Below, piece by piece: positions 4,722 through 31,258 of a stretch of 64,000 nucleotides of DNA. The position numbers and the translations under genes are program-made. Source of the stretch: a virus; IMG/VR virus record IMGVR_UViG_3300048014_000015, positions 1 through 64,000 of that record; one strand, given 5' to 3'. The notes under the pieces are model-generated. The model saw nothing but the letters and a program-made list of their open reading frames with translations, was not told the DNA's origin and ran no database searches. Numbering within the stretch: position 1 is the first letter of the stretch; each line of letters begins with the position of its first letter.

Positions 4722-4753
4722 TTTATAATCTTCTAGATTTATTACCTATAAAG

Positions 4754-5374: not shown

Positions 5375-7724
5375 GTTTTTTGACTTGACGAGCTAACTTA
5401 CGCCTAGGATTAATAAATTTACTATTTAAATTAGGGATTATTTCACCACCCTTATACTGACTACCCCTCACAATTATCCCACCCTTTGGTGCCCTATAAG
5501 CAGAGTTCTTTACCGGTTCTTCTGGTTCTTCCGGTTCCCCATCTGTAAGATTAAAATCCTCATCTGGGTTGTGCCATTCACCTATTTCTTCTGGATTCCG
5601 TCCCTTTGGATATGATTTATGACCTTGTTTTTTACCATTGTACCACTTCTTCTTGTCACCTTTATTTAATCCATCTGATGAAGCATATTTTTTGAGAGAA
5701 GGAATAGCCATAAGGTCTATGAGGTGGGTTCTGGATTTACGTTGTATAGGTGGCCACACCCTTTTAGTAGGTTTAGGGATATTAGGTGTAGGCTTATTAG
5801 TTCTACGTCTAAAATTTGTTATATGTATGTTGGCTTCTTCTGGTGAGATACCGTGTTTTTCTACTAAATAGTCCTTTAGGTTATTAGGTGCGGACCAACC
5901 TAATTCATTATGTTCGGCAATACTTTTATATATATCATTTCTATTAGGGTATGGTTTTCTTTTTACCCTAACCTCTGGAGGTATAATGTGAACAGGTTGA
6001 GGTAATTTAAATCCTAATTCATCAGGATTGGTTCCCGATTCTTCAGTTAATGGGAACTTTTCCGTACCCTTTAGTTCTTCATATGGAAATGCACCAGCTA
6101 ATTCTAGTGGGGTAGCGTGATGTTCTGGATTAGCTAAATCTACGTCTGTAGGATTACCAAATTGATATTGTTTATCATTAAAATGATATTGACCTAAATA
6201 ACGTACTAGACCAGCAACACCAGGAACTAGATATCTACCTAGTTGTGGATTTAGAAAGTGAGAGTGCCTACCTAATAGTCTTGCTGTTTCTATATATTTA
6301 CCTGTAATCGGATCACCAGGACCGTGAGTATTCAGGTAATTTCTAGCTACTTCCGCATATGCTGGTACATGATCCTTCATTACCCTATTCATGTAGTCCG
6401 GTTCTGATTCTCCACTACTTTTAGGAGGAACTAATCCCTCTTGTAACATTGCTCTATGAATAGCATCATTGAATACCTCATTTTCTACATGTGGTATATG
6501 TTTATTAGGTAAATATTTACCAATTATTGCATACCTTTTAATTAACCTACAACGTTTAAATTGTCCAGGTTGAATATTTGATAATACTGAATGTGTGTTT
6601 CTATTTCTAGCTCTTGGATTCCTCTCCCAAGCTGGAGTTTCATATTCTGGAACAGTATATTTTTCATTACCATGACGCCTAACAGTATTACCATCTTTAT
6701 CTACTTTCCAGTTTGTATTCTCCCTATGGTGTTCTGTTTCCGCATTACGTCTTAAAGAATCTTGAATATCTTTATAGGTATGATCTTTTAATGCTCCTGT
6801 ATGATATAGGTGCTTACGAATAGCTTCATACCATTGTTTACGTTGTTCTTCATTTACTCCACCTATACCGTGTTCAATACCATTATAAAATCTACGTTGT
6901 AATTGATGTTCTGGATGTATCCCCTTGGAAGCTTTACGAACGAACTGAGCTATAGCGGAATCTAGTGTTAATTTTTTACCAACATTATGCCAATTATATT
7001 GTGTAGCTAATTCATATGCTCGTCCTTTCTTGTTTCTATCATGTAACATTAATGCATTACGGAGTTCCACGAATTTATCTGGATAGAACGATCCACCCGC
7101 TTCTTGGGCTAATTGAGCTAAATGTTTATTAGACCCACCCAAAGATGGGTGATGTTCTATTTCATTTAGAACTATACCTAATCTGGAACCAGCTATTCCA
7201 GAAGAATAATTAGTAGTATCCCTGGCACGACTTACAGTTGTAGAAGCATATTTTTTAATTAACCTACGACGTTTAAATTGTCCAGGTTGATGGCCTAATA
7301 ACTCTGCTTGTCGTTCTAGGGGTAATTGATTAAATGCGTGTGCAGCAGCATCTTCGGCATGTTGTCTGGGACGATTAACAAATATTTTGGACTCTATACT
7401 ATTACTACCTGATAAGTGGTGTATGTAGTGTTGGTCGTGTCCTTGTACTAAATTAAGCCAATCTTTAGGGATTTCAAAATGACTTGAATCGGGTTCCAGT
7501 CCCAGTTCAAACCAAGTGTGATCTATATTAGTAGACTCTGGATCATCGATAAAATTGTATCTGTATCTATAGGGTTGCTTTTGTAATTTACCTAATGCTC
7601 GATACCCATTAGCTCTAGGATCACCACGTTCTTCTAACCAGTCAGCAAATACTAGTCTTGTATTGTGGTCATCAGGATTCTGGTCTAAGTGTCGTTGAAA
7701 GTCTTCTTCGCTAGTCATTACCAA
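5343..7724 (-). CDS. large TIGR02996-like domain protein (793 aa)
   Basis: N-terminus FQRHLDQNPDDHNTRLVFADWLEERGDPRANGYRAL. Internal repeat QPGQFKR[RC]RLIK[KR]YA occurs twice. Confidence 0.75.
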   Translation of the reverse strand: MVMTSEEDFQRHLDQNPDDHNTRLVFADWLEERGDPRANGYRALGKLQKQPYRYRYNFIDDPESTNIDHTWFELGLEPDSSHFEIPKDWLNLVQGHDQHYIHHLSGSNSIESKIFVNRPRQHAEDAAAHAFNQLPLERQAELLGHQPGQFKRRRLIKKYASTTVSRARDTTNYSSGIAGSRLGIVLNEIEHHPSLGGSNKHLAQLAQEAGGSFYPDKFVELRNALMLHDRNKKGRAYELATQYNWHNVGKKLTLDSAIAQFVRKASKGIHPEHQLQRRFYNGIEHGIGGVNEEQRKQWYEAIRKHLYHTGALKDHTYKDIQDSLRRNAETEHHRENTNWKVDKDGNTVRRHGNEKYTVPEYETPAWERNPRARNRNTHSVLSNIQPGQFKRCRLIKRYAIIGKYLPNKHIPHVENEVFNDAIHRAMLQEGLVPPKSSGESEPDYMNRVMKDHVPAYAEVARNYLNTHGPGDPITGKYIETARLLGRHSHFLNPQLGRYLVPGVAGLVRYLGQYHFNDKQYQFGNPTDVDLANPEHHATPLELAGAFPYEELKGTEKFPLTEESGTNPDELGFKLPQPVHIIPPEVRVKRKPYPNRNDIYKSIAEHNELGWSAPNNLKDYLVEKHGISPEEANIHITNFRRRTNKPTPNIPKPTKRVWPPIQRKSRTHLIDLMAIPSLKKYASSDGLNKGDKKKWYNGKKQGHKSYPKGRNPEEIGEWHNPDEDFNLTDGEPEEPEEPVKNSAYRAPKGGIIVRGSQYKGGEIIPNLNSKFINPRRKLARQVKKHERRSTSIYR

Positions 7725-8800
7725 TATCCTAATATAGTATCAAATACATTATACCACTGTTTACGACATTCTTCTTTATTCCAATTATATTGTTCTTCTA
7801 CCCTCATTCTACCATAGCTAGCAAGTTTAACCCTAAGTTCGTGATTAGTAACTAATTCTGTTAAAGAGTCATAAAAATCCAGATTATTATTACACTTTAG
7901 CCCATCAATACCATGCTGTATACAACTATATTCCCCCCAATCAGTAGCTAAGGGTACAGCACATAAAGCCCATGACTCCATAATCCGTAGATTAGACTTA
8001 CCCGCATTAAAGTTAATTGGCGATAGTGGAGCTAAATATATGTGAGGATTAATTGAACTTAGTATCTGATGGTAAGATACAAAAGGAACCATAGGCTGAT
8101 ATAATAGCCCTTTATGTAGGTATTTTCTTACAATACCTCCGTGTGGCATCATACCGGAAAATATTACTACAGCCCTATTTCCATTATTTAATCCACAATA
8201 TGTACTTAAAAACCTATCTAAAGGTTCTGTAATTTCGTCTACATCTCCCTTATGGGTTTCACTACCAACCCATACCACACGTACTGGGGTTTGTACTTTG
8301 ATGTTATATTGCTTTCCTCTACGTCCATCTAAATCTTCAAATTCTTCAGATTCTACATGAGGATACATACCTAAATCTAGTAAGTTTGGAGCTATCAGTA
8401 CTTTCTCTTTTACGTCTGAAAATGTAGTAGCTAAATACGGTGTTGATACTACAATCCAGTCAGATAGCTCTTTCATAATATCGTATACACATAATCCACC
8501 TTCATCTGGCCTAGCTGGATTCCAATTAGGAATAGTTAACCAATCATCATCAAGTGACCAAACAAATTTAGCCCCATTTCTACGAAGATGTTGAATCTCT
8601 AATAGGGTATTAGAAGCATTCTTTACATCTGGTAACCCACTAAAATAGTATACCCCTTTACCGAACGATGGTCCAGGACCAACCTCAAAATGCCAGTCTC
8701 TATCATACCTTTCGTGACAAAATCTAGCAGGTTGCAATACTCGATGGTAATTACATGCTCCATCGTTAGGGTAGAAAAAATACATAGTCTTTTTGGACAT
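7718..8800 (-). CDS. glycosyltransferase (GT-B fold, GT1/GT4-like)
   Basis: C-terminal half (GKSNLRIMESWALCAVPLAT...GIDG...LRVKLASYGRMRVEEQYNW) resembles the GT1/GT4 nucleotide-sugar binding domain. Confidence 0.6.
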   Translation of the reverse strand: MSKKTMYFFYPNDGACNYHRVLQPARFCHERYDRDWHFEVGPGPSFGKGVYYFSGLPDVKNASNTLLEIQHLRRNGAKFVWSLDDDWLTIPNWNPARPDEGGLCVYDIMKELSDWIVVSTPYLATTFSDVKEKVLIAPNLLDLGMYPHVESEEFEDLDGRRGKQYNIKVQTPVRVVWVGSETHKGDVDEITEPLDRFLSTYCGLNNGNRAVVIFSGMMPHGGIVRKYLHKGLLYQPMVPFVSYHQILSSINPHIYLAPLSPINFNAGKSNLRIMESWALCAVPLATDWGEYSCIQHGIDGLKCNNNLDFYDSLTELVTNHELRVKLASYGRMRVEEQYNWNKEECRKQWYNVFDTILGYW

Positions 8801-8836
8801 GGAAGAATCTTTCTTGAAAGAAATAACCTATATAAG

Positions 8837-10945: not shown

Positions 10946-10974
10946 TGTACTTCTCTTAATTAACTTTTATAAGT

Positions 10975-11427
10975 TTATTGATTAGCTTCTCTAACTTCTC
11001 TATCAATATCATCTTGTTCAGCCTCTTTACTTTTACGTTCTTCATCTATACCGAGTTGCGTTATTTTTGGTTTTTTATGAATAGATAAAAACCCCTTATC
11101 TTGTAGTTCTTTTATCTCAGCAGGAGCTAAGTAAATGTGACGTTTTTTATCTAACATATCCCTATAAGCAGTTATTTGTTGACCATAGATTGAACCAAAT
11201 CCTTGCCATTTTTCTAAACGCTCTTTAGGAGAGCTATGACCATTTAAATCTCTCTTAAATGAGTGTTCATTAGTATACCCCTCATTATTACTCATATTAT
11301 CGGTAAACCTCTTTAAATCCTCACCGTTCCTAGAAAACGATAATATAAAGTCTCTACGTCTACTATACTTATTAACTACATTAAAGTACCTACTAATATC
11401 TCTTTGTCTCTTTATCAAATCCATCAT
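10975..11427 (-). CDS. hypothetical protein
   Basis: The ORF track starts it at TTG 11439. The first ATGs are at 11427/11424, preceded by GGTGGAG. Confidence 0.5.
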   Translation of the reverse strand: MMDLIKRQRDISRYFNVVNKYSRRRDFILSFSRNGEDLKRFTDNMSNNEGYTNEHSFKRDLNGHSSPKERLEKWQGFGSIYGQQITAYRDMLDKKRHIYLAPAEIKELQDKGFLSIHKKPKITQLGIDEERKSKEAEQDDIDREVREANQ

Positions 11428-11566
11428 TTTCTCCACCAAATAATATGGGTGAATGAACTTGAGGACGAACCTGTTTAGGTGCTTCTGACTGTGTTTTAGA
11501 CTGTACAGGCGTAGGTAAAGGAACCTGTATATTAGTTACAGGTTGGTTAGGATTAATAACAGGCAT
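11393..11566 (-). CDS. small hypothetical protein (57 aa), paralogue of the N-terminus of the 8837..10945 product
   Basis: MPVINPNQPVTNIQVPLPTPVQSK...PILFGGENDGF versus MPVISRNTPTEQITVPVPTPVQTK...PISFGGENDEF. TAATG stop/start overlap with the upstream gene. Below the ORF-track size cut-off. Confidence 0.45.
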   Translation of the reverse strand: MPVINPNQPVTNIQVPLPTPVQSKTQSEAPKQVRPQVHSPILFGGENDGFDKETKRY

Positions 11567-14304
11567 TACTTATAGCCCCTAAATGTTCTACGACGACGAC
11601 TATATAAATTTCTACCTGGACTATGTTTACCAATATTAATTTTAAGTTTCTTACCTGGATGCCCGCTAATATCCCAACTCCAATTATTGTTACCTTGTTT
11701 GGCTTTCATAGCTGCATTTATAATCGCATGCTTTAATAGGTTGTGTACTACAGGTATATGTTTTTTACCTAAACCTAAAAATTTAGCTAATGCTCTAGCA
11801 TGTGTGGTAGCGTGATTGTGTGCCCAACTATCAAGAGTATTATGTAATTGGTCATTAGGTGGTTGACTGTTATTAGGTGGTGTCGGTTGTGCAGCAGTCT
11901 TATGTGATTCTGGTAAATAAGGTAATTGATGTAATCCGTGTTCATCACCTCCCCTTACTTTACCTAATAAAGTAAGGGGAGATGGTTGTACGGTAGTCTT
12001 TTGTGGCTCTGGTAAGTAGGGTAGAGAATGATAACCAGCAGGGTCTTCCTCTTGATTTACCCTAGGTGGTGGGGAGTAGTTAGCTGGTCCATACATTGCT
12101 TCCATACCCATATCTAGGGCTGGATCATGCCATTTACTAGTTTTTGGTGAATCTATAACTTTAGGAAATTTAGGTACAGGTGGTTTACCTAAAGCATACC
12201 TTTTTAATAACCTATTACGTCTTTGTTGAATTGGGTCGTTTTCATGTTTCATAATTTTATTCCTAAAGGTGTCTCTAGCTTGTGCTTGATCTTGTGAACC
12301 TACTGTAAAAAAATGTCCTTGTGATGCTTCGATAGGTACTTTTTGTTGTTTAGCAAACTGATGTATAGTATTGGTATTTTGGTTACCCTTATCTGGTAAT
12401 AATATATCTAACCCCTTTTTATGTGGTACAAAGATTCTACTCATTATACCAAACCTATCAAGCTTTACTCGTGTCTCGTATCCAGAACCTTGCATCCGTA
12501 GACGATATAATGTATCTGGTCCACTAGGTCTAACATGAAATACACCATATCCAGGACTATTCGGTAATAATCCATTTACCCAACTACCTAGAGCATGTGC
12601 GGCATTGGGTTGTATTCTTCCATATACTGCCACCGCTACACCTGGAACGGATTGAGTAGGGGTATCGTGCAATGCAGGGAACTGTTTGGTCTTTTGTGCT
12701 CCAACTTTCTTAGCTAACTCCCGAGTACGTTGTACGAATATTTTATGTTCAGGACTACTCGCTTTTAATAGTGCACCAATAAAGTTAGACTTATTGGCTA
12801 ATGAGTACTTTCTAGGTAGCCTTTTACCATTGTCTCTTAGTGATCCATTACTAATTCTTACCCACCCATCATTCTGTTTAGGAAACACTTCTGCTTCATA
12901 AGTAACTTCACTAACGCCGGGTACTTCTTTAAACTTTTTTATAGGTAAATTATTATTTCCTTTACCCCAATTATCCCCATCACCGCCCACATACCACACA
13001 TGACTACCTTTAACAAATATCTGTCCATAACCCGGCATAGCACCATTTTTAGATAATAATTTACCTATAGAAGTTAATTTATTATAATCTAACTTTTTCT
13101 TCTTATACCGAGTAGCTATCTCATTTTGTTTATTAGTAGGATCATTATCGGACTTTTCATGCGGATTGTTTAACGCACTTTTAACACCCCTATATGGTGG
13201 ACTACCATGCCTATTACGTGCTGCTTCCTGAAGTCCCCTATACGCATGTCGTTGTATGGATTCTTCTATCTCTTTATCGCTTGATTCCGGTGATAGTTGT
13301 TTAATTCTGTTAAAAATTCCTATATATCTTGACCTATCGTATCGTGGGGTTCCAGGTTTAGTTCTTCTATCCGAGTCAGCTTCTACAGCGTAATACTCTG
13401 GTGAGTGGGAAAAAGGATTATTAATTGCCGTCACTGGCCTATTTTCTTCTGAAACCTTTCTGAGAACAGAGTAGGTATGTTGATCCAGGTGCAATTTATT
13501 AACTGCATTTAACCAATTATATTTAGCTTTTAATATTGGGTGTTTACTGTGATTTAGTTCATCGTGTAAACCCCATAAAGCCTCTGCATGTCCCCTAAGA
13601 ACTGCTACAGCTAAATTTCTAGCATCTGGTGTACTATGTTTACTATTAGCTATATGCCTTAAAGCATACTCAATAGGAAATCCACGTACTAATGGATGTG
13701 CTGGTTCTTTATATGGGAATCTAGCATATCTTTTAGGATTGTTACTTCTAGGATAAGCGGGTCTACCCTTTTTCTTTAAAAACTCAATAGGTTTAGTTCT
13801 ACGATGCATAGAATAGTAATCTTCTGGTATTGTCTCATCAGGTCGCCAATCTACTCCTTCTGCTTCTGGTGCTTTTCCTCCTAACCCATACATCCATAAA
13901 TGGTATTCAGATAATGGTTTACCGATGAGTTCCCTTGCTTCAGGTAACTTATCCCAATCACCATGTTCAGCTTCACTATGTGGTACTGCTTCTCCTGCAG
14001 ATTGCCATATATACTTGCCATTATGTTTTACAGGTTTATAACCCCTTACAACTTTCCAACCTCTTATAGATGATTGAGACTTACCGTATATCCCTGGTTT
14101 ATTAAGATCAGTATTTACTAATTCACTATACTTTATAGATTTAGTTCTACGATTCATATTAGTATATCCTAACCTATATAACAATCGTTGTAACAGCAGT
14201 AGTTTATTAGGTGGTAGTTCAAGATTAAGTCGCTTTAATTTCTTCTGTTCAAGAAGAAGTTCAGCAACTTTCTTTTCCATCTCCTTCCTGGTCATTATCC
14301 CCAC
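11566..14304 (-). CDS. large hypothetical protein (912 aa)
   Basis: Long uninterrupted ORF with basic K/R-Y-A/S motifs and an internal LPYLPE[PS].K repeat. No enzymatic motif recognised. Confidence 0.7.
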   Translation of the reverse strand: MGIMTRKEMEKKVAELLLEQKKLKRLNLELPPNKLLLLQRLLYRLGYTNMNRRTKSIKYSELVNTDLNKPGIYGKSQSSIRGWKVVRGYKPVKHNGKYIWQSAGEAVPHSEAEHGDWDKLPEARELIGKPLSEYHLWMYGLGGKAPEAEGVDWRPDETIPEDYYSMHRRTKPIEFLKKKGRPAYPRSNNPKRYARFPYKEPAHPLVRGFPIEYALRHIANSKHSTPDARNLAVAVLRGHAEALWGLHDELNHSKHPILKAKYNWLNAVNKLHLDQHTYSVLRKVSEENRPVTAINNPFSHSPEYYAVEADSDRRTKPGTPRYDRSRYIGIFNRIKQLSPESSDKEIEESIQRHAYRGLQEAARNRHGSPPYRGVKSALNNPHEKSDNDPTNKQNEIATRYKKKKLDYNKLTSIGKLLSKNGAMPGYGQIFVKGSHVWYVGGDGDNWGKGNNNLPIKKFKEVPGVSEVTYEAEVFPKQNDGWVRISNGSLRDNGKRLPRKYSLANKSNFIGALLKASSPEHKIFVQRTRELAKKVGAQKTKQFPALHDTPTQSVPGVAVAVYGRIQPNAAHALGSWVNGLLPNSPGYGVFHVRPSGPDTLYRLRMQGSGYETRVKLDRFGIMSRIFVPHKKGLDILLPDKGNQNTNTIHQFAKQQKVPIEASQGHFFTVGSQDQAQARDTFRNKIMKHENDPIQQRRNRLLKRYALGKPPVPKFPKVIDSPKTSKWHDPALDMGMEAMYGPANYSPPPRVNQEEDPAGYHSLPYLPEPQKTTVQPSPLTLLGKVRGGDEHGLHQLPYLPESHKTAAQPTPPNNSQPPNDQLHNTLDSWAHNHATTHARALAKFLGLGKKHIPVVHNLLKHAIINAAMKAKQGNNNWSWDISGHPGKKLKINIGKHSPGRNLYSRRRRTFRGYK

Positions 14305-15200
14305 CCTATTTCATTTATTGCTGGGTATATTAAATCACTGGGATTATCAAGATTGATTTTACTTAATTCTTCTTTCCATACAGATTCAATTCTTGGTGTA
14401 ACTACATCTGTAGGTAAATCGTGATTCTGGTGGACGACAATCGCTGACTCATTAGAACAGGTATAGTTCGCTATACCTAATACCCTACGTCTATGCATCC
14501 AACCAACATCACAACTACCCCACATTGATGTATTAATCATACCTCCGAGTCTCTTCCATGTTTCTCTACTATGTCCCCCAAATATCCAGGATTCCCAAGT
14601 TGGTATACGACTACCCGGCTGAGCTACGATATCAGTAGCTCTATGTGAAAAGTCAGGGTGTCCATTAGTATCATCTTCATAAAACCTATCAATATCTCTT
14701 ACCGCTAGTAGTCCCTTTTCTATCCATTGTACACTATCCAACAATACCTGTTCTTTGGGAGAAAGATAGTATGATCTACAACAGGCGTATAAACCTATAG
14801 GGGTTCGTTTATCAGTTGGTCCCTGATCTATTCTAACTTTTTCAAATTCATCTAATTTCTTTACACAATCCAAAACACTAGTCCTACCAACCATAATTTC
14901 AGGATGGGTAAGTATTATGTGTCTACCTTGTGAGACACGAATACCGTGATTAATGGTTGCAGCACAATCACGCCATTTTTCTTGCTTAGGGTGTGGTGTG
15001 AGTATGGTTGTTTTAATACCAGTACGATGTGACCAGCTATCAACCAGAGCATAGGTACAGTCGGTAGAACTATCGTCTACCACTACCAACTCAAATAGGT
15101 TTTTTGGAAATTCTTGTTTCTCATAACACATTAAGGAACGTTCTAGTAAATGACTACGGTTATATGTAGCCATAACAACTGAACAAATAATCTTATCCAT
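14295..15200 (-). CDS. glycosyltransferase family 2
   Basis: N-terminus CSVVMATYNRSHLLERSL...LVVVDDSSTDCT is the classic GT2 (GT-A, DxD) signature. Confidence 0.85.
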   Translation of the reverse strand: MDKIICSVVMATYNRSHLLERSLMCYEKQEFPKNLFELVVVDDSSTDCTYALVDSWSHRTGIKTTILTPHPKQEKWRDCAATINHGIRVSQGRHIILTHPEIMVGRTSVLDCVKKLDEFEKVRIDQGPTDKRTPIGLYACCRSYYLSPKEQVLLDSVQWIEKGLLAVRDIDRFYEDDTNGHPDFSHRATDIVAQPGSRIPTWESWIFGGHSRETWKRLGGMINTSMWGSCDVGWMHRRRVLGIANYTCSNESAIVVHQNHDLPTDVVTPRIESVWKEELSKINLDNPSDLIYPAINEIGWG

Positions 15201-15495: not shown

Positions 15496-16074
15496 CTATT
15501 TCCTTTTATGGTATAGCCAAACATCATGGGGAGAGTACCACCATCCAGGTAATAACTCGTCTACTGCTTTCTTAACACCAGGCCAAACCCTCTCATCGTC
15601 TTTTTCCGTTGATGTACCTACATCATCTCCCGCTATTATACCATTTATCTTAATTTTTGGGAGCCATGCTTTTATTTCTTGAGAGAGATGATTATAGGTG
15701 TGCTGTGTATCCAGGAATAGGAAGGATATACTGTTATTAGGGAATAAAGATGCTGCTCTTATAGAATCGTATACCAATATTGATACTATATCCTGTAACC
15801 CACAGTTATAAACATTAGATATCAATTCAATTGATATCAATCTATTATTATTTATGCTCTGGTTTAAACCTAAACAATTATCTATACCTATCACATTCCA
15901 GGGCTTACCAGATTCTTTAACTCTCTCACCCAGATAACATAATGACCTACCAAGTAGACAACCACATTCTATAAGTAGTCCACCCTCATCAGGACATGCC
16001 AGGTGTTCAATGATATTATCGTAGGTTTCTTTATAATCAAAGAATCCTGTAATATTGTGCCATCGGGTAATCAT
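15496..16074 (-). CDS. class I SAM-dependent methyltransferase (Methyltransf_24 / sugar O-MTase-like)
   Basis: LIECGCLLGRSLCYLG (motif I-like) and FLFLDTQHTYNHLSQEI...GIIAGDD. Confidence 0.7.
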   Translation of the reverse strand: MITRWHNITGFFDYKETYDNIIEHLACPDEGGLLIECGCLLGRSLCYLGERVKESGKPWNVIGIDNCLGLNQSINNNRLISIELISNVYNCGLQDIVSILVYDSIRAASLFPNNSISFLFLDTQHTYNHLSQEIKAWLPKIKINGIIAGDDVGTSTEKDDERVWPGVKKAVDELLPGWWYSPHDVWLYHKRK

Positions 16075-16084: not shown

Positions 16085-17563
16085 TTAGTTTAATATCCCT
16101 ATACCCATCCATTGTTCATCATCACTTCTAATAAACTCAATGGCTGGGCGAGTTTTCTTTAGTTCGCGGTAGAGTGTTGGTGTGCCGCCATTTTGGGCTT
16201 CTCTCTTTACACAGGCATCTTTGATATCGTGAAACATTACTAAAGGAGAATCTTTTAATCTTTCATAATCCGATTTAGCAGCATTGTAATTATGGTCAGC
16301 ATCTATAATCACTAAATTAAAATCCCTACCACTAAAGTCATTAGACGTTACACCATACTTATACTCAAGTCCCGGTAATTGTATTGGTGGTTCATACTTA
16401 TATAGGTCAATTGCTGTATATATTATATCATCAATAAATTTACCTATATAAGTATGAAGTATAGCACTTAAGTAACCGTGAAAACACCCCACCTCTAGTA
16501 TACGAAAACGACCATACCCAGTAATTTCTAGACTCAACCATATTAGAAAGTGTGCTAATTCTTCTGGATGCTGCCACAATCCAGGACGTTTTAATGGTGC
16601 TTTAGCAAATTCCCACTCACCATACATCGGTCTACCATCGTTATACAGTCCTACAGAGGCTAGTAAACTTGATAAATATTGTGGATTCCTTAACTGTTGG
16701 TATGTGCTAGAATTTAGCTTTTCTAGTGTAGTTTCTAGTCTATTGGATGGGTTGGGTGTGAGCATTTTATAAGCATCTAGTAAAGTACCATCTTCTAATC
16801 CTGCTCCACGTTGAGAATAGAAAGCATAATGTACGAATGGACCGCAACTACCAGCAATTACGTTAGGTCTACTTACTCTTTTGGGTTCTTGGTGGGCTAA
16901 CCAGGCCTCTTCATCATTAGACATGGTATTAGCCCACACCGCACAATCAGAACCCAACCAACTGATAACATTGATCGAATGTCTTAGGTAATCTGGTGGC
17001 CCTAAAACAATATCTGGTAGGTGCCAACTATCTGGATTAGGGTCGTTAATAAAATCTTGATGTAATAACCTAACAAACTCTGACGAACCCCAACCTACTT
17101 GATCCATACACCCTACACCAACTGTTCCACGAGATAACGGAATACGACCTAATTTCTGATGTTCTCTTGATGTAAGGGCAGTATTGATTACATTGCCATA
17201 AACTAAGAAAGGATGTTGATTTTCTATACGACAATTAGCAAGTGCTTTTATTGCTCCAGGATGGTAGTAAACAATATCGTCATCAAGTCTGATATATACG
17301 GTGTCTTTGTCGGTACTATGTGGAAAGAACTTATGTATCCGGTAGGCCACCGGATGATATATCGGTTCTGGTATTTGGACCAATTGACATTTTGGATGCT
17401 TGCATAATTCATGTATGTAGTCTATATCAGGTTGGTGGTCAGTGTTTAGCCATATATCCCACCTATCTACGTCAAGATCAGCAAGCAATCTAGGTGCAAG
17501 TACCCCCATATACTGGTTACGACCAGCGGGAGTACATACTACTACTTTATAACCTTTAATCAT
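16085..17563 (-). CDS. two-domain protein: N-terminal glycosyltransferase-like (DxD) domain fused to a C-terminal class I SAM methyltransferase
   Basis: N-terminal part has VVVCTPAGRN...YIRLDDDIVYY. C-terminal part has RILEVGCFHGYLS...LVIIDADHNYNAAKSDYERL...MFHD. Confidence 0.65.
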   Translation of the reverse strand: MIKGYKVVVCTPAGRNQYMGVLAPRLLADLDVDRWDIWLNTDHQPDIDYIHELCKHPKCQLVQIPEPIYHPVAYRIHKFFPHSTDKDTVYIRLDDDIVYYHPGAIKALANCRIENQHPFLVYGNVINTALTSREHQKLGRIPLSRGTVGVGCMDQVGWGSSEFVRLLHQDFINDPNPDSWHLPDIVLGPPDYLRHSINVISWLGSDCAVWANTMSNDEEAWLAHQEPKRVSRPNVIAGSCGPFVHYAFYSQRGAGLEDGTLLDAYKMLTPNPSNRLETTLEKLNSSTYQQLRNPQYLSSLLASVGLYNDGRPMYGEWEFAKAPLKRPGLWQHPEELAHFLIWLSLEITGYGRFRILEVGCFHGYLSAILHTYIGKFIDDIIYTAIDLYKYEPPIQLPGLEYKYGVTSNDFSGRDFNLVIIDADHNYNAAKSDYERLKDSPLVMFHDIKDACVKREAQNGGTPTLYRELKKTRPAIEFIRSDDEQWMGIGILN

Positions 17564-17891
17564 TTTTTACCCATTTGTTGTGGTGGTCACATGGGTACAA
17601 CTCATCCCACCTTTTACCTAATATATCTCGTGTTAGGTTTCTACCAGGACTATAAAAATAACTTCTAAAAGTATCTATAAATTCTCTTAAATTGTGCCAC
17701 TCTTCTACATGTCCTGGATGATCTTCTAAAAAGTCGGCAATAATACCAGATAATTGACCATCTACTCTACCATCAGTTCTTTGCCATTGAGCGTATAAAT
17801 TATAAAATTCTTCTGAACACTTAACATATTCTCCCACCATTAAAGAAGGATTATAAAAATAAAAGCCTTTTGAGAGAAATTCATTTCCCAT
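17556..17891 (-). CDS. hypothetical protein
   Basis: 111-aa ORF with an 8-nt overlap with the downstream gene. Confidence 0.6.
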   Translation of the reverse strand: MGNEFLSKGFYFYNPSLMVGEYVKCSEEFYNLYAQWQRTDGRVDGQLSGIIADFLEDHPGHVEEWHNLREFIDTFRSYFYSPGRNLTRDILGKRWDELYPCDHHNKWVKND

Positions 17892-17934
17892 ATCTATAAT
17901 CTCATAGGTTATATATTATGGGCTATTTATAAAG

Positions 17935-19011
17935 CTATTTAAGTAATCCTTTAATTAGTGTTCTAAATTTATCAGCATTATCATGCCATGATACACAGTA
18001 TTTATCGAATTGTCCGTAAGTCGGTTCATATCCACTACCGTTGATAATTTCGTTCCATATTCTGCCTAGTTTTTCCTGTTCAAAATTGTGTTGAGCATTG
18101 CTAGCTCTTGTATGCAGTATAGTTGAACCACCTGTATAACACGCCCAATTTAATTTATCAAAATCATATTTTAGTCTTCGCCCCATCCATATATCACCAA
18201 ACCTATTAAGAGTTGGAATCTTTCCAGTACCCTTACATTTAGAACAGGGTTCGGTTTTCAGGTTGTCATTACCATTACATAAAGGACATTGACCAGTAAT
18301 ACCTGTATCTGGTCCCATAGGTGCAAAATAAAGGTATGGTAGTGCCTCTACCTTTACCATTACGTTCATCCCACATAAGGGAAATAAAGTTCCCCCAGGT
18401 ATTGGACCAACATAGTACGGTAGTGTTCCGGGAATACCTTGACCGCTTTCCAGTTTTAATTGTGTCTCACCGTCAAAATCTGGAACACCAATCCATACAC
18501 CGTGAGATAGCATTACTGGAGATTCATTCCGTATGCTGTACGGAACACCCCTAAGATATAGGTCGGTATCATGTGCTGTATTCATCCACGATAAAGGTAC
18601 TCGTTTTTGAAGTACATCCAGGTGCTGTTGTATAGGATCATTAAATGGTTCTGGATTAGCCAGTATTCCATTAAATTTTTGGTTTAGTGGTACGGGAGCT
18701 ACATCATCATCTAATGTCAAAATGTGTGTAGGTTTTAATGTTCCTGCTAATATAAATCCTAAATTTCTAACTGAATCAGTTTTTCGATATATCAGACTTT
18801 TATACTTTTCATATAACGTCCCACCATCCTTCTTCAATTCAATTTTATCTTTATAATTGTAAACAGCTACTTCCGGTATATCTCCATCCCATACCGTAAT
18901 TAAAGTAACCTCATGTCTATTAAATAGAAAATCCCAAGCTTTTAGGAATGTTTTATACTGCTCTACTCGAATAGTTGGAATTACTACAACAATCTTGTTA
19001 GGTTTAGTCAT
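17935..19011 (-). CDS. GT75 / reversibly-glycosylated-polypeptide (UDP-arabinopyranose mutase)-like protein with an inserted CxxC zinc finger
   Basis: VVVIPTIR, WDGD, TLDDDV, RGVPYSIRNESPVMLSHGVWIGVPDFDGETQL, IPGGTLFPLCGMN, RFGDIWMG and HTRASN match the plant RGP signature blocks. Start moved to ATG 19011 because the track's N-terminal extension overlaps tRNA-Leu. Confidence 0.8.
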   Translation of the reverse strand: MTKPNKIVVVIPTIRVEQYKTFLKAWDFLFNRHEVTLITVWDGDIPEVAVYNYKDKIELKKDGGTLYEKYKSLIYRKTDSVRNLGFILAGTLKPTHILTLDDDVAPVPLNQKFNGILANPEPFNDPIQQHLDVLQKRVPLSWMNTAHDTDLYLRGVPYSIRNESPVMLSHGVWIGVPDFDGETQLKLESGQGIPGTLPYYVGPIPGGTLFPLCGMNVMVKVEALPYLYFAPMGPDTGITGQCPLCNGNDNLKTEPCSKCKGTGKIPTLNRFGDIWMGRRLKYDFDKLNWACYTGGSTILHTRASNAQHNFEQEKLGRIWNEIINGSGYEPTYGQFDKYCVSWHDNADKFRTLIKGLLK

Positions 19012-19035
19012 AATGTTTAACCCATGGGTTAGGTG

Positions 19036-19117
19036 TGGTAGTGGTGGGAATCGAACCCACAAGCTTTTCAGCGACCGATTTTAAATCGATTGTGTTTACC
19101 AGTTTCACCACACTACC
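19036..19117 (-). tRNA. tRNA-Leu (anticodon UAA), type II with long variable arm
   Basis: Manual cloverleaf: acceptor GGTAGTG/CACTACC, 3-bp D stem, anticodon loop TTTAAAA, variable arm GCT-GAAA-AGC, T arm GTGGG-TTCGATT-CCCAC. No encoded CCA. Confidence 0.85.
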
Positions 19118-19118
19118 G

Positions 19119-20675
19119 TTAAGAGAATACGATCTTTTTACGTTGGAGTCTTTTTCTTGGTTTATTTAACCTATATAACTCTGTTTTAGATTTTCTACCC
19201 ATTTGTTGTGGTGGTCCCTGTGGTCCCGCTTGTCCTATCTGTGGTACGCCTTGCGGTGGGGCTTGTTGTGGCATTTGTGCCTGCATATTTCCGACTTGAG
19301 ATACAATACCACTACCAATAGAGGGCTTCTTCCACTGTGATATCTCGTATACCTGATCTTCGTCTAGTGGTACACCCCATTCAAATAGCTTATCGGCATG
19401 TTCCATAAGTTGTGAGGCATTTGGATCATCAACATTAAAGGTAAATGTTCCTGGAGCAACACCGGGAGCATTGTAGGAATACAATACATTTACAAGATCG
19501 GATTGTATGGTTTCTTGTAGATCAACTGCGTGATATTTTACAATCTCGTCTAATGTCTCTCCATGTTGATCGGCAGTACCTGAACCTAATCCTGTCGCTT
19601 CTGCCTTACTAGACAAAGTTTGACCCTCAATAAACCTTTCCATTTTTGGATCAAAATAGTCGTTTACCAGTTTCCATAGTATATCCGAACTAGCTGCACT
19701 AACCTCTAATCTCTCCACCTTGTTTACATCTGGATTAGTGCTATTCCATCTAGGATAAAGTAATACAGTATTAGAAAATTGTGCTCTAGCTGCTGATTGT
19801 GCTTGCTGCATAGCCTGTGGATTGCCAGCATCATAGTAAAATATTGTTAATCCATTTGCAAACCTATGGATATAATTCATTAATTGGCCAAATACTTGTT
19901 GTTTTAGCCACCAGAACCAATACAACCTACCACGAACACCAACACCACCAATAGAACCAGCTAACTCAGGTTCAATAAAGTCGGCATCATCGGGTTCGTG
20001 CTGATGTATAATATACTGTATACGTTCATCAGGTGTTAAGAAGTGACACAATCCCCAATCGGTGGAAGTCTTTTCTCCTGGATAACCCGGATATACAAGA
20101 ACCCCCCATGTTTTAGCATCCCATTTAAGCCTTAATTTATCACCATTGATAGGTGTAAAATCTCTAACAAATATCTTTTGTTCACCCTTATAGTTACGCC
20201 ATTCATAATCTAGTTCAACAGCATACTTTCCATACCATATAGCTTGAAGTAACCACATCTTTAATCTTTGAAAATGTGGTATCTTCTTTATAATATAGGT
20301 ATTCATTTTCGCCGCTTCTACTTCGGCGGGATTCGTCTCATCGTCTGGTTTCAGTGACCAACCAACTTGAGCTACGGGACGCCAGATCCTTAACAACGCT
20401 CCCCACAAAGTAGGGTCACGTTTCATAGCTATAGCGTTTGTATAGCTATCTCTTAACGCCTCATCTGAAGTGTATAAAAATGCTCTGGATGCACTACGAA
20501 CTAGAGAGGAGAACGATAGGAAATTAGGTATACTATATCTGCCACCCCCTGGAGGTAGTCCACCCGGATCGCTAGGAGTGGGACCGGGATAACCTAACTC
20601 TTGTGCTGTAAATCCCCCAGATTCTACACTCCAGGGAGGATTTACAGAAGAGTTGGGATTGTTATTATCAGACAT
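19119..20675 (-). CDS. putative portal protein
   Basis: 518 aa, downstream of the large terminase. Gln/Pro-rich basic C-terminal tail. The call rests on size and position, with weak resemblance to Mu gp29/DUF935-type portals. Confidence 0.55.
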   Translation of the reverse strand: MSDNNNPNSSVNPPWSVESGGFTAQELGYPGPTPSDPGGLPPGGGRYSIPNFLSFSSLVRSASRAFLYTSDEALRDSYTNAIAMKRDPTLWGALLRIWRPVAQVGWSLKPDDETNPAEVEAAKMNTYIIKKIPHFQRLKMWLLQAIWYGKYAVELDYEWRNYKGEQKIFVRDFTPINGDKLRLKWDAKTWGVLVYPGYPGEKTSTDWGLCHFLTPDERIQYIIHQHEPDDADFIEPELAGSIGGVGVRGRLYWFWWLKQQVFGQLMNYIHRFANGLTIFYYDAGNPQAMQQAQSAARAQFSNTVLLYPRWNSTNPDVNKVERLEVSAASSDILWKLVNDYFDPKMERFIEGQTLSSKAEATGLGSGTADQHGETLDEIVKYHAVDLQETIQSDLVNVLYSYNAPGVAPGTFTFNVDDPNASQLMEHADKLFEWGVPLDEDQVYEISQWKKPSIGSGIVSQVGNMQAQMPQQAPPQGVPQIGQAGPQGPPQQMGRKSKTELYRLNKPRKRLQRKKIVFS

Positions 20676-21117: not shown

Positions 21118-21153
21118 ACTATATTCCTTATAGGTTAATACTATATCCTATAG

Positions 21154-22613: not shown

Positions 22614-24323
22614 TTAGGTTATATCCCCCCTATCCCACTTAGAAGGACTAGTACTACTTGAAGTACCACCTCCATTAATACCGAAGAAATTCCATCTATT
22701 GGGGGCACCAACTAAAGAGTTTGGCAGCAGCATTATATCACTGTTGTCAACGTGTCTGGTATCTCCTAATACTGGTCTAAGTTTATTAGGATTGGGTACA
22801 GATTCAGGACCAACAGATAGCGGAACACCTTCTGGAAATGCATGTAATAACCCCATGCCTATGGTTACACATCTATCATCGTGTCTTCCCGCCTCATGGT
22901 CGAATCTATAACCCCACATAGTAGGTTTGGTAATGAGCATTGATAATTCTTGTTCTAATGTCTGATCTTCTATAGGTATAATACGACCATTTTCTACATA
23001 ATGTTGTGGTAACCTACCAGCATCTGGCGACCATGATACCATTCTATTCTGAATAGAGGTCTTCAATATTTGTGCCATACGGTAGTTAGCTTTCCCCCCC
23101 CTATACTCGAATCTAATAACACGTATACCAATTCTTTCGTAGTATATCGCTAGTCCTTCCATTTGTGCAGGGTCGACTATCAATGCTGATAGGTTAAAAT
23201 TTTTCCTAACAACCTCTATCCATGCCTGTACGCTCCTGCCTTCCATATACCTAGGATCATTGTAGTTATCTTGTAATATAGGTATTCTTAATTCATGCGT
23301 ACCTTGCCAGCAATCGAGACGATCTACGATAGCTTTATTAGTTTCTGGTTCTAGGTGCATAACACCTAACGAACACCTATCACGAACACCCCCATAGTCA
23401 ACAACTGCGTAGTACTGGGTGTATCGTCCTCCATATGTACGCTCCCTAAGGTTGAAGTCCCTACATTTTAGACATTCTTCTTCAGTTAGGTATCCATGTT
23501 CTTCTCCTGGATCAACCCATCTATTTTTATATAGTCTATCACGTTCTCCGGGCATCATACCTTGAGATGCATCGGCTATCTTTGAATCATCCATCCACGA
23601 TGGTAGCGGCTTACCTACTGGTGCTTCAAAGAACGACCAGTATTTAGATTTTTCACACCTATTGCGTTCTTTCCATTGCCAGCTACCTTTCAATCCTGCA
23701 TTCGTGCTAACAACTAATACACAGTATGGACGTTTATTTATTGAACCTAATATAAATGACTCCCAAAATAATTTACTCTCTTCATGCTGCCAGTGTGTAA
23801 GTTCCTCAACTACAATCATATCTGGGAATGCTCCAGATTGTGTATATGCATTTTTTGTTAGAACAGATAACTCACCCCCACTACTACCAACAGCCTTTAA
23901 GTCGGATACCTGCATTCTTTCAGCTATCCAAGGATTATCAGAACATATACCTCTCATGGCTTTTGTAATGAGACTTGCTTGATCTTCTGTACCAGCACAC
24001 ACAACTATATTTAATCTCCTCCTACTCCAACCAAGTAACCAACACAATTGCCTTGCTGTCTCATGTGTCTTATCACTACCCTTGTGATAACCATTCCAGA
24101 ACCACCTAGGACCATTATAGGTATTATTAATCCCAGCTAAAGAATCTATAGCTGGTGCAACCCTCATACTGCGTTCCCATTGCCATCGTTCTGCAATGAG
24201 ACGGAATACTAGTTTCTTTGGTTGTGCGTCTACCACAACGTGAGATAGGAAATTCAAATAACCTAGCGAACTTTCGTAAGCAGCTAGGTTATAAATTTCT
24301 TCTAGTGTACTTTGTTCAGACAT
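22614..24323 (-). CDS. terL: terminase large subunit
   Basis: Deviant Walker A (HKGSDKT), Walker B (DMIVVEELTHW), and C-terminal RNase-H-like nuclease acidic residues (YAVVDYGG, LIVDP, RHDDRCV). Confidence 0.8.
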   Translation of the reverse strand: MSEQSTLEEIYNLAAYESSLGYLNFLSHVVVDAQPKKLVFRLIAERWQWERSMRVAPAIDSLAGINNTYNGPRWFWNGYHKGSDKTHETARQLCWLLGWSRRRLNIVVCAGTEDQASLITKAMRGICSDNPWIAERMQVSDLKAVGSSGGELSVLTKNAYTQSGAFPDMIVVEELTHWQHEESKLFWESFILGSINKRPYCVLVVSTNAGLKGSWQWKERNRCEKSKYWSFFEAPVGKPLPSWMDDSKIADASQGMMPGERDRLYKNRWVDPGEEHGYLTEEECLKCRDFNLRERTYGGRYTQYYAVVDYGGVRDRCSLGVMHLEPETNKAIVDRLDCWQGTHELRIPILQDNYNDPRYMEGRSVQAWIEVVRKNFNLSALIVDPAQMEGLAIYYERIGIRVIRFEYRGGKANYRMAQILKTSIQNRMVSWSPDAGRLPQHYVENGRIIPIEDQTLEQELSMLITKPTMWGYRFDHEAGRHDDRCVTIGMGLLHAFPEGVPLSVGPESVPNPNKLRPVLGDTRHVDNSDIMLLPNSLVGAPNRWNFFGINGGGTSSSTSPSKWDRGDIT

Positions 24324-24328: not shown

Positions 24329-24340
24329 CTATAGGTTAAT
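24329..24340 (-). promoter_or_regulatory. TTAACCTATAG leader motif upstream of terL
   Basis: Gene-sense ATTAACCTATAG ends 5 nt before the ATG at 24323. One of more than 20 copies of this motif in the window. Confidence 0.5.
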
Positions 24341-26938: not shown

Positions 26939-27511
26939 CTAAGAGTTTGATACTCTAACTGCCTCAGCATCTGACTCAGGTACTACCCTCACCACCTCAG
27001 CATCTTGAACATCAATAGTATCGGAAAGTTCTTTAGGTTTGTTCACATCATTAAATGAAACACCATTAGCCTCTAACTTCAGTCTAATGGCCGCAATATC
27101 ATCAGGACTATATTTCTTCTGTTGGTTATGTTTGGAATACATACCATAGTGTTTCATTAATAGGTCTAGTGCCCCTTTAGCTGAGTGATAATCTCTATCT
27201 CGCATGGCATAGAGATAAATTCTCTTCATTTTTTCGATTACTTCTTCTTTCTCACCTTGTTTTTTAGCAATATACTTACACTCTTCTTCATCAATAATCT
27301 TTTGCACAATCAAACTTTTGAACAATTTAGCCGCACATGACTTAGCTACTTCATCCTTCATATCACCATTTTCATCAAAAACAGCCCTATAAGCCCTACC
27401 TGTATCATAGTCAATTAGGTATTCTCGAGCAAACCGCTCATGTCTACGCTCAATTACAGTTTTATTATTATTTTTCTGTAACATCTTAACAACGAGATTA
27501 TCCATAGCCAT
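26939..27511 (-). CDS. terS: terminase small subunit (Terminase_2-like)
   Basis: RHERFAREYLIDYDTGRAYRAVF...AAKLFKSLIVQKIIDEE resembles the conserved N-terminal HTH region of Terminase_2 small subunits. Confidence 0.7.
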   Translation of the reverse strand: MAMDNLVVKMLQKNNNKTVIERRHERFAREYLIDYDTGRAYRAVFDENGDMKDEVAKSCAAKLFKSLIVQKIIDEEECKYIAKKQGEKEEVIEKMKRIYLYAMRDRDYHSAKGALDLLMKHYGMYSKHNQQKKYSPDDIAAIRLKLEANGVSFNDVNKPKELSDTIDVQDAEVVRVVPESDAEAVRVSNS

Positions 27512-30678: not shown

Positions 30679-30826
30679 TTTGGTACTACCTCTCTCGTAA
30701 AAACTGGGGTCGGTAAACAGTCGTGGAGAATTTTTCGGAAACTTTTTTCCTGCTCAAAAACACTGGAATTTCTGGCGTATTCGCAGATTCCGAAAGAGCA
30801 TTAGGTGAAAAAACAAACTCCTGATA

Positions 30827-30855
30827 TTGACAGTTAGCAGCTGTCGGCTTAAAAA
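30827..30855 (+). promoter_or_regulatory. sigma70-like promoter with dyad (TTGACAG-N7-CTGTC), -10 TAAAAA
   Basis: TTGACA 30827-30832, 17-nt spacer, TAAAAA 30850-30855. Faces the GC-rich island. Confidence 0.55.
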
Positions 30856-30884
30856 GATCTTACCACAGTGGTCAAGGTGATCCA

Positions 30885-30928
30885 CTGGGGGAATTAACCT
30901 ATCACAGTTTTGAGGGGAAGTCATGGCA
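30885..30928 (+). repeat. partial copy of the island cassette-boundary repeat
   Basis: ctggggaattaacctatcacagttttgaggggaagtcatggca is identical to 31222-31265, including RBS, ATG and the first codons (MAR). Confidence 0.85.
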
Positions 30929-31159: not shown

Positions 31160-31164
31160 GTAAA

Positions 31165-31245
31165 AACAGGTGTGACCAGCGGCAGGTAGGTGCAAGCCCT
31201 ATCCACACCTCTCCCCAATGTCTGGGGAATTAACCTATCACAGTT
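31165..31245 (+). repeat. 81-bp cassette-boundary repeat, copy 1
   Basis: aacaggtgtgaccagcggcaggtaggtgcaagccctatccacacctctccccaatgtctggggaattaacctatcacagtt. One mismatch to 32258-32338. Contains AGGTGTG/CACACCT and CCCCA/TGGGG stems. Confidence 0.9.
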
Positions 31246-31258
31246 TTGAGGGGAAGTC

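Follow-up and report, generated by a model that had tools for sequence, protein, structure and literature searches.

A phage gene of the GT75 family with a putative zinc-ribbon insertion, predicted to supply a furanose donor to a glycan cassette

The window studied here is a stretch of 64,000 nucleotides of viral DNA (positions 1 to 64,000 of IMG/VR record IMGVR_UViG_3300048014_000015), a tailed-phage genome with three tRNAs, and the element in question is a gene of the GT75 or reversibly glycosylated polypeptide (RGP) family located at 17935..19011 on its minus strand. The 358-amino-acid (aa) product is apparently an active member of GT75, i.e., a nucleoside diphosphate (NDP)-sugar pyranose/furanose mutase, as indicated by the Pfam family PF03214, an AlphaFold2 model, Foldseek comparisons and conserved catalytic residues. 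We favour, with a probability of roughly 0.65, the reading that this Mn-dependent mutase is active and feeds a cytoplasmic cassette producing an O-methylated furanose glycan, probably on virion proteins. Judging from its relatives, the gene belongs to a coherent, largely phage-borne GT75 subfamily of several hundred sequence clusters with a complete catalytic apparatus, not described before. The subfamily has a chimeric specificity pocket, is modified by modular zinc-ribbon and, occasionally, intein insertions, and is recurrently accompanied by Methyltransf_24 enzymes.

A preliminary description, made from the letters of the sequence alone, had taken the gene for a GT75/RGP homologue, and this assignment was upheld by Pfam, by a profile search of PDB sequences and by Foldseek. 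PF03214 (RGP) is the sole Pfam family detected in the protein and matches residues 5-232 at E 1.8e-23, with 83.7 bits against a cut-off of 23.8. When the protein was searched singly against PDB sequences, 8cid ('UDP-arabinopyranose mutase') was found at E 2e-9 and the entries of MtdL, which carry the deposited name 'Transglycosylse', at E 4e-4; with a profile built from 68 GT75 family members, the values were E 9e-25 for 8cid, which is OsUAM2, and E 5e-20 for MtdL. The C-terminal half of the protein aligns with the family profile as well, having been severed by the insertion in the single-protein search. All motif blocks listed in the preliminary description were found in the sequence, and all of them fall on invariant or near-invariant columns of the family.

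The open reading frame (ORF) runs from an ATG at 19011 to a stop codon at 17935-17937. An automatic ORF list had placed the start at TTG 19062, and this candidate was rejected, as its 17 extra codons are the translated sequence of a tRNA-Leu(taa) gene (19035..19117, minus strand; ARAGORN; Rfam tRNA 59.9 bits) lying between the portal stop and the GT75 start. Because the TTG extension overlaps this tRNA, ATG 19011 is regarded as the true start; the N-termini of the GT75 homologues coincide with the ATG form, and the coordinates first given for the gene were thereby retained. No exact database match to the 358-aa protein is on record, the NCBI clusters looked up for nine homologues were all nameless, and scans for promoters and terminators around the gene returned fewer sites than shuffled sequence did.

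The AlphaFold2 model of the protein, computed from the family alignment, reached a predicted local distance difference test (pLDDT) score of 92.3 and a predicted template modelling (TM) score of 0.91, with residues 112-118 as the sole poor segment. In a Foldseek search of the PDB, the best match was OsUAM2 (8cid, E 1e-16, TM 0.68/0.71), and ranks 2-7 were six MtdL entries at about 1e-13 (to 2e-13), so that the top seven consist exclusively of these two proteins; generic GT-A enzymes appear only after the GT75 structures, at E 1e-4 or worse. The predicted fold combines a GT-A Rossmann-like N-domain with a GT75-specific core and C-terminal helical domains.

Enzymes of GT75 depend on a metal and interconvert the pyranose and furanose forms of NDP-sugars by way of a sugar adduct to an arginine of the active site (PMC9937993, PMC6861824). 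In MtdL, the third Asp of the DDD motif and His287 bind Mn2+, Arg257 contacts the beta-phosphate and the sugar, and Asp260 is the proposed general base (PMC9937993), while Arg159, which corresponds to OsUAM1 R158, is the autoglycosylated residue and proposed nucleophile; OsUAM1 R165 and MtdL Asp87, Asp195 and Arg289 are also among the key residues (PMC9937993, PMC6861824). Residue equivalences were taken from HMMER alignments to MtdL, and conservation was counted across 254 aligned family members. Every residue at which mutation destroys the mutase activity of MtdL, AtRGP2 or OsUAM1 is represented in the phage protein, and the phage counterparts of the key residues are D79, D101-D103, R154, R161, D178, R270, D273, H300 and R302.

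The DxD motif D101-D102-D103 (18703..18711, minus strand, as are all codons given here) corresponds to MtdL D109-D111 and OsUAM1 position 110 and is found in 249, 250 and 254 of the 254 relatives, respectively. R154 (18550..18552; 252/254) matches the nucleophilic arginine, OsUAM1 R158 or MtdL R159, and R161 (18529-18531; 196/254) matches OsUAM1 R165, both lying within LRGVPYSIR. The segment R270-F-G-D273 (18193..18204) aligns with MERFGD of MtdL and thus provides the equivalents of R257 and D260, conserved in 251 and 253 relatives; H300 (18112..18114), the equivalent of the Mn-binding H287, and D178, the equivalent of Asp195, are each present in 253, and R302 corresponds to MtdL R289. The DxD motif and both arginines, on whose presence in a proper alignment the preliminary description had made its assignment depend, are therefore all in place. 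Moreover, the inactive AtRGP5 lacks equivalents of MtdL R257 and H287 (PMC9937993), and class-2 plant proteins have DDN instead of DDD (PMC6861824); since the phage protein keeps DDD and the R257/H287 equivalents, it bears the signature of an active enzyme rather than that of a pseudoenzyme like the class-2 proteins.

By homology with MtdL and the plant UDP-arabinopyranose mutases (UAMs), D103 and H300 would hold the Mn2+ that binds the diphosphate, R270 would bind the beta-phosphate and the sugar, and D273 would activate R154. The latter would then attack C1, after which the ring would open and re-close as a furanose and the nucleotide would be re-attached.

The protein had also been called plant-type, and this part of the preliminary description found no support, since the specificity residues are mixed, the distances to OsUAM2 and MtdL are about equal, and the nearest relatives are phage and bacterial. 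The nucleotide positions are T13, N42 and S86 in the GDP-using MtdL versus P, D and D in the UDP-using plant enzymes, and the sugar-pocket positions are D87 and S228 in MtdL versus S91 and G216 in AtRGP2; both AtRGP2 S91D and MtdL D87S are inactive (PMC9937993). In the phage protein, P12, D42-G-D44 and C213-G214-M-N are plant-like and the pair T78-D79 (D-S in plants) is MtdL-like, and the class-1 plant pattern (P, D, D-S, G) is not found. Position 78 is T or S in 212 of the 254 relatives and position 79 is D in 180. As the two reciprocal substitutions inactivate AtRGP2 and MtdL, the T78-D79 pair is not neutral, and because the pocket is a plant/MtdL chimera, it does not reveal which nucleotide or which sugar is used; candidate sugars are L-Ara, D-Gal, L-Fuc, L-Gal or another. 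Identity to rice UAM2 and MtdL is 17-19%, and the profile scores of 90 bits for OsUAM2 and 75 bits for MtdL refer to solved structures only. The closest relatives (42-60% identical) lie on phage-like metagenomic contigs, and the closest cellular ones (30-39%) in bacterial metagenome-assembled genomes (MAGs).

The second feature of the protein is a putative Zn-ribbon insertion at residues 240-267 (18211..18294, minus strand), with the sequence GQCPLCNGNDNLKTEPCSKCKGTGKIPT. It contains C242, C245, C256 and C259 in the motifs CPLCNGND and CSKCKGTG, of which the second (C256-S-K-C259-K-G-T-G) has the full CxxCxGxG form and the first (C242-P-L-C245-N-G-N-D) has its last G replaced. Across 120 aligned relatives, 80-90% of the sequences have a gap at residues 241-267, and in 81 of the 120 a 5-residue loop joins APMGxD to (L)xRF, which bears out the earlier observation that a four-Cys, DnaJ-like insertion stands in place of a short loop. 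Searched alone against PDB sequences, the insert matched anti-TRAP at E 0.004 and DnaJ at E 0.078, and against zinc-ribbon models it matched anti-TRAP RtpA at E 2e-5 and DnaJ at E 4e-3 to 8e-2. These matches missed the family cut-offs (24.5 bits versus 65 for RtpA; 16 bits versus 377-548 for DnaJ), and no Pfam zinc-finger family was found in the 358-aa protein at E 0.01 or better. The insert shares with DnaJ and anti-TRAP ribbons two CxxC pairs, the second as CxxCxGxG, and weak hidden Markov model matches, and differs from them in scores far below the cut-offs and in being a single putative Zn centre of about 27 residues in an enzyme loop; the relation is one of resemblance rather than membership.

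Cys-rich inserts occur in the family at two sites, one between PDxDGxTQL and LPYY (site B) and the other that of the window protein (site C). Among the 120 relatives, 27 have such an insert at site B, 23 at site C, seven at both and 77 at neither, and Cys-free inserts of similar length are also found at both sites. The cysteines are retained in 20 of the 22 other site-C inserts, the remainder of which is variable, and in two (P0080 and P0087) the second pair is CC instead of CxxC. Parsimony on a neighbour-joining tree of 308 well-aligned columns, a rough and unsupported tree, required at least 16 changes at site B and at least 21 at site C. The pattern also differs among phages with related portal proteins: site C holds a 32-residue four-Cys segment in the window phage, a 28-residue four-Cys segment in L001 (portal 82% identical to that of the window), 18 residues without Cys in L005 (63%) and the 5-residue loop in L035 (68%). 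These comparisons suggest that the Zn module has been gained and lost repeatedly at two loops.

In the AlphaFold2 model, the insert, with a pLDDT of about 85, lies between short strands at 239-241 and 264-266, ahead of R270, which follows the end of the insert by three residues, and of the helix starting at D273. The hairpin would map to the region that carries the oligomerisation interface (PMC9937993). Given its patchy occurrence at two sites and its absence from 77 of the 120 relatives, the Zn ribbon is dispensable for the conserved catalytic core, and it seems to be a lineage-variable, rapidly exchanged decoration of a hairpin near the active site and not part of the catalytic machinery. 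It may stabilize the hairpin or make partner contacts, and the docking role proposed in the preliminary description is possible.

Insertions of another kind were seen in three relatives, P0242 (806 aa), P0243 (723 aa) and P0290 (635 aa), which carry intein-like sequences with LAGLIDADG-type motifs. The insertion point is precisely the Cys of the conserved CGMN motif in P0243 and P0290, and in P0242 it lies between PDFDGE and TQL. Inteins are typically located at active-site motifs, and the insertions thus fit the importance of these positions. The recurrent Zn-ribbon insertions at two loops, together with inteins at active-site motifs in three relatives, amount to a natural experiment on the tolerance of the scaffold for modular insertions.

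GT75 had been described beforehand as a family not usual in phages, which holds for isolated phages and fails for metagenomic phage contigs. In INPHARED, tblastn gave one match in 50,697 GenBank phage records, a 595-kb uncultured phage at 29% identity; PHROGs has no family for the GT75 core, the zinc finger alone matching a PHROG; and BFVD contains one clear relative, 'Reversibly glycosylated polypeptide (Fragment), uncultured Caudovirales phage', and one weaker match. By contrast, a collection of 5.8 billion proteins yielded 242 relatives at E 1e-3 or better, the best 120 of which all have PF03214 and are 42-60% identical, many of them on contigs of 64-70 kb or about 104 kb. In a library of 1.84 billion representatives, the number of clusters was 1,216 at a threshold of E 1e-3 and 346 at one of E 1e-30; a metagenome scan gave 88 relatives, and IMG/VR 11 loci; several unrelated phage backbones are represented in the metagenomes. 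Only 15 GT75 loci, all in MAGs and 30-39% identical, were found in 185,579 species genomes. Some relatives are named 'reversibly glycosylated polypeptide/UDP-arabinopyranose mutase' by JGI, UniProt also labels such genes RGP/GT75, and GT75 has been listed as a viral auxiliary gene in soil viromes (PMC11032446). Our search of the literature found no functional study of a phage or viral GT75, and only two prokaryotic GT75 mutases, MtdL and Hyg20, had been characterised by 2023 (PMC9937993).

The neighbourhood of the gene is that of a glycan cassette. A Mu-type portal gene (19119..20675, minus strand; PF06074, E 1.3e-39) lies directly upstream of GT75 in the same direction, and it is followed on this strand by tRNA-Leu, GT75, a 111-aa ORF, a 492-aa fusion, a Methyltransf_24 gene, a 91-aa ORF and a family 2 glycosyltransferase (GT2). 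The 111-aa protein (17556..17891, minus strand) has no family match in Pfam, PHROG or NCBIfam, and the last 8 nt of its gene overlap the start of the next. The 492-aa protein (16085..17563, minus strand; phrog_4447 glycosyltransferase, E 5e-5; AlphaFold2 pLDDT 90.5) has an N-terminal part of about 270 aa with a GT-A or nucleotidyltransferase fold and an invariant DDD (D94-D96), as found with AlphaFold2 and Foldseek, and a C-terminal part that, in a Foldseek search of the model, is class I O-methyltransferase-like (Rv0187/COMT-like). Its family profile found no match in PDB sequences, only the fold search being informative, and on the model the fusion is a candidate (furanosyl)transferase plus methyltransferase.

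The next gene encodes a Methyltransf_24 (MT24) or CmcI-type methyltransferase of 192 aa (15496..16074, minus strand; PF13578, E 1.1e-14; PF04989, E 1.3e-4), and the GT2 gene (14295..15200, minus strand; PF00535, E 2.3e-11) a protein of 301 aa without a membrane segment; copies 53-71% identical to this GT2 are carried by related phages. Beyond it lie large unannotated proteins and a further glycosyltransferase (GT)-like gene of 360 aa (7718..8800, minus strand; phrog_7162, E 2.3e-26), which is 68.5% identical in L001. A hydropathy scan found no membrane segments in the cassette proteins.

Parts of this arrangement recur elsewhere. Adjacency of portal and GT75 is kept in L001, L005 and L035, and the order portal - GT75 - MT24 - MT24 - GT2 is seen in L001 and L035. 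L005 keeps the portal-GT75 pair and the GT2 gene, with a methyltransferase of another type (Methyltransf_11/23/25), and additionally has a beta-phosphoglucomutase-family HAD protein and a sugar-1-phosphate nucleotidylyltransferase, i.e., NDP-sugar-making steps. On unrelated phage contigs of 85-108 kb, GT75 adjoins an MT24-type gene or lies at most three genes from one, beside giant fibre-like proteins. Another locus (L010; positions 1-12472, at the end of the 527,782-bp contig JAKBEU010000001.1, binned as 'MAG: bacterium') is the head module of a phage or prophage, with the order P22-like portal, SU10-like capsid protein, GT, MT24, GT75 and SU10 adaptor, so at least one 'cellular' GT75 match is actually viral. 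The ORF adjoining GT75 in this locus was considered as a homologue of the fusion GT-A domain and rejected, because the query coordinates match the C-terminal methyltransferase domain instead.

In 25 further loci, the three ORFs flanking GT75 on either side (147 ORFs in all) were pooled and contained Methyltransf_24 13 times, GT2 10 times, epimerase/dehydratase nine times and RmlD-type proteins seven times by Pfam. In 11 bacterial MAG loci (150 neighbour ORFs), GT1, GT2 and MT24 were each found eight times, Wzy_C and ABC-2 exporters four times each and UDP-Glc dehydrogenase three times, so that these bacterial neighbourhoods are surface-polysaccharide clusters. Methyltransf_24 is the commonest neighbour family of GT75 across independent loci.

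The stand-alone relatives of the fusion N-domain (residues 1-270) deserve separate mention. They form a widespread family of 270-340 aa proteins with no Pfam model, in which DDD, T11-P12-x-G14-R15 and H245 are invariant and to which L039 8001-8984 and L040 8001-9035 belong, and they are a candidate for an undescribed furanosyltransferase family. In Planctomycetes bacterium MalM25, the genes next to one stand-alone homologue are those of the flavin mutase GLF, of a GT2 and of an epimerase, and the GLF neighbour gives independent support for pairing the fusion GT-A domain with furanose-donor supply.

Within a cytoplasmic glycan cassette that begins right behind the portal gene, GT75 would provide an NDP-furanose to the phage glycosyltransferases, namely the fusion GT-A domain, the GT2 and possibly the GT at 7718-8800, after which the methyltransferase domain of the fusion and the Methyltransf_24 enzyme would O-methylate the sugar. 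The most likely acceptor would be a virion protein, which is the least certain step; virion proteins are favoured because the cassette lies in head/tail modules on at least four phage backbones and its enzymes are all soluble. Phage GTs and an O-methyltransferase are clustered with structural genes both in the window and on other backbones, as expected for a virion-glycosylation cassette.

Several points weigh against this reading. The acceptor is deduced solely from gene position and from the lack of membrane proteins, and auxiliary genes are often located near structural genes without acting on them. The fusion GT-A domain resembles nucleotidyltransferases at similar Foldseek scores, no recognisable NDP-sugar synthesis enzyme was found in the window, capsid and tail genes were not identified there, and most window proteins have no family match. 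In addition, the chimeric plant/MtdL residues of the pocket do not allow the substrate to be named, the position of the insert relative to the active site is read from sequence order and the secondary structure of the model, and no enzyme assay has been reported for any phage GT75. A more sweeping version, in which an uncultured group of soil- or freshwater-type tailed phages coats its virion proteins with an O-methylated furanose glycan, the donor being made by the metal-dependent GT75 instead of the usual flavin mutase and interchangeable Zn modules at two loops tuning the contacts with partner transferases or acceptor proteins, is put forward only tentatively.

The alternative that survives best, although we consider it unlikely, is that the mutase and its cassette modify the host envelope (O-antigen, capsule, exopolysaccharide or wall glycan), which could alter the receptor and block superinfection. 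The bacterial homologues (30-39% identical) belong to gene clusters for surface polysaccharides, together with Wzy_C, ABC-2 exporters, GT1/GT2 and MT24, and the best NCBIfam matches of the cassette GT2 are of the EpsD/EpsE type, all far below the cut-off. The cassette itself, however, has no flippase, polymerase, exporter, GtrA-like or any other membrane protein, the window shows no recognisable integrase or lysogeny genes, and the location in head/tail modules on different phage backbones argues in the same direction.

It is distinctly improbable that the GT75 protein serves in vivo as a glycosyltransferase, either as a self-glycosylating primer or as a protein Arg glycosyltransferase whose Zn ribbon docks the target. 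Zn ribbons often mediate protein contacts. GT75 proteins autoglycosylate an arginine, some donors give transferase activity only (AtRGP2 with UDP-Glc), and the active-site geometry has been compared with that of the Arg-glycosyltransferases EarP and NleB (PMC9937993). Nevertheless, glycosylation of another protein is not known for any GT75 member (PMC9937993, PMC6861824), the ribbon is missing even in close relatives and is thus not a general target-recognition device, and the genes around GT75 encode sugar-nucleotide and transferase enzymes, which is what a step that supplies a donor would lead one to expect.

Slightly less probable still is the use of the NDP-furanose to glycosylate phage DNA, giving a hypermodified base that blocks restriction. 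Arabinofuranose on 5-hydroxycytosine has been shown in the DNA of RB69 and DLP3, and Pootjesviridae encode a flavin UDP-Galp mutase predicted to make UDP-Galf for DNA glycosylation (PMC13326640); that the cassette enzymes are all soluble would also suit such a role. Against it, Pfam found no thymidylate-synthase-like hydroxylase/hydroxymethylase, dCTPase or dNMP kinase among the window ORFs scanned (at least 100 aa), and since these hallmark nucleotide-metabolism genes are missing, DNA hypermodification is judged unlikely. The cassette is also in the morphogenesis module, distant from PolA, nuclease and AAA_24 at 34-41 kb, and the enzymes that accompany the mutase are of the GT-A/GT2 and O-methyltransferase kinds instead of the GT-B DNA transferases known from those systems (PMC13326640). 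Finally, a catalytically dead structural or regulatory paralogue resembling plant class-2 UAMs such as OsUAM2, which is the best PDB match in both sequence and structure, can be set aside on residue conservation, as class-2 proteins have DDN and lack the R257/H287 equivalents and the phage protein keeps DDD, R270, D273 and H300, each in at least 98% of the 254 relatives.

The predicted mutase with its cassette can be compared with several known systems. MtdL of the A201A pathway and Hyg20 of hygromycin A are bacterial GDP-L-Fuc/GDP-L-Gal pyranose-furanose mutases (PMC9937993; PDB 7xpr-7xpv, 7yua, 8hl8). The phage protein shares with them the family and fold, the equivalents of the essential MtdL residues D87, D109-111, R159, D195, R257 and D260 and the Mn-binding H287, and it keeps the S/T-D pair of MtdL 86-87 as T78-D79. 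It differs from MtdL in having only about 18-19% identity, plant-type residues at the guanine-recognition positions (T13 to P12, N42 to D44), G214-M215 instead of S228-Q229, a place in a glycan cassette instead of an antibiotic cluster, and the Zn-ribbon insert in the hairpin before R257/D260. With the plant class-1 UAMs (OsUAM1, AtRGP1-3), it shares the Pfam RGP family, DGD, DDD, D-aromatic-D, CGMN, the P of IPTIR and the equivalents of R158 and R165, while the Pfam match is limited to residues 5-232 in the phage protein, the plant D-S (AtRGP2 S91) is T-D in the phage, plants have no Zn ribbon, and the nearest relatives of the phage protein are phage and bacterial. The non-catalytic class-2 OsUAM2 (8cid), its best PDB match, is without the DDD, Arg and His residues needed for catalysis, all of which the phage protein keeps.

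The flavin-dependent UDP-galactopyranose mutase (Glf/UGM) performs the same net conversion of NDP-pyranose to NDP-furanose, has a phage-borne copy in Rhizobium phage RL38J1 (PMC13326640) and, in a planctomycete, adjoins a homologue of the fusion GT-A domain, whereas its fold is unrelated, it uses flavin adenine dinucleotide in contrast to Mn2+ and Arg, and the RL38J1 product has been proposed for DNA glycosylation (PMC13326640). Cassettes of mycobacteriophages (cluster O, F1 and others), in which phage GTs and an O-methyltransferase act on capsid and tail tube proteins (Freeman et al. 2023, as cited in PMC11600133), likewise consist of phage-encoded tandem glycosyltransferases and an O-methyltransferase. 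They are not reported to include a GT75 or any other pyranose-furanose mutase, and neither their host phylum nor their phage lineage is related to that of the window phage.

If the favoured reading is true, phages make their own furanosyl donors for particle decoration, which bears on antigenicity, adsorption and stability, and small soluble GT75 enzymes are potentially useful for NDP-furanose synthesis. In the more sweeping version, this viral GT75 would be the first functional one, and the furanose glycan the first to be seen on a phage particle. The finding builds on known phage sugar biology more than it upsets it.

The window phage seems, by its genes, to represent a lineage without isolated relatives. 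Megablast of window positions 14.0-24.5 kb against GenBank phages gave no match, TerL (22614-24323, minus strand) had no tblastn match in the 50,697 GenBank phage records, and the only tblastn match of the portal among GenBank phages was to a Psychrobacter phage at 26% identity. TerS lies at 26939-27511, and the replication genes, PolA (33965-36076), a PD-(D/E)XK nuclease and AAA_24, at 34-41 kb. A 432-aa protein with fn3 and a Laminin_G_3/sialidase-N-like lectin domain (52621-53919, minus strand), which has PHROG matches to tail fibre and virion structural proteins, is likely a carbohydrate-binding fibre or decoration protein, to judge from its domains.

Several further observations were made in the window. 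A domain of about 130-150 aa is common to three otherwise different proteins (5343-7724, 8837-10945 and 33032-33925, all on the minus strand) and recurs near GT75 or TerL in other loci (L024 3378-5357, L035 1693-2088 and L038 2678-3109; 33-60% identity); it may be a common anchoring or adaptor domain. Moreover, the heptamer TAACCTA occurs 80 times, versus 20.7 +/- 5.0 in shuffles, e.g., at 2562-2568, 17905-17911, 21131-21137 and 24332-24338 on the minus strand and 31231-31237 on the plus strand. Many copies are located 10-25 nt before start codons on the coding strand, often within short palindromes such as TAACCCATGGGTTA ahead of the GT75 ATG, and classical Shine-Dalgarno motifs precede only 14 of 54 ORFs. 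TAACCTA is a candidate promoter or regulatory motif of the phage; alternatively, it may hint at a host in which Shine-Dalgarno use is weak.

Positions 30500-33000 form a GC-rich island (48-64% GC versus 36-40% elsewhere), which contains a plus-strand ORF of 328 aa (31259-32245) among minus-strand genes and is possibly an early/regulatory region or an acquired module. An 88-nt direct repeat, 97% identical, lies at 31158-31245 and 32251-32338, and a 45-nt repeat present three times bears TTAACCTATCACAGTT directly ahead of plus-strand ATGs.

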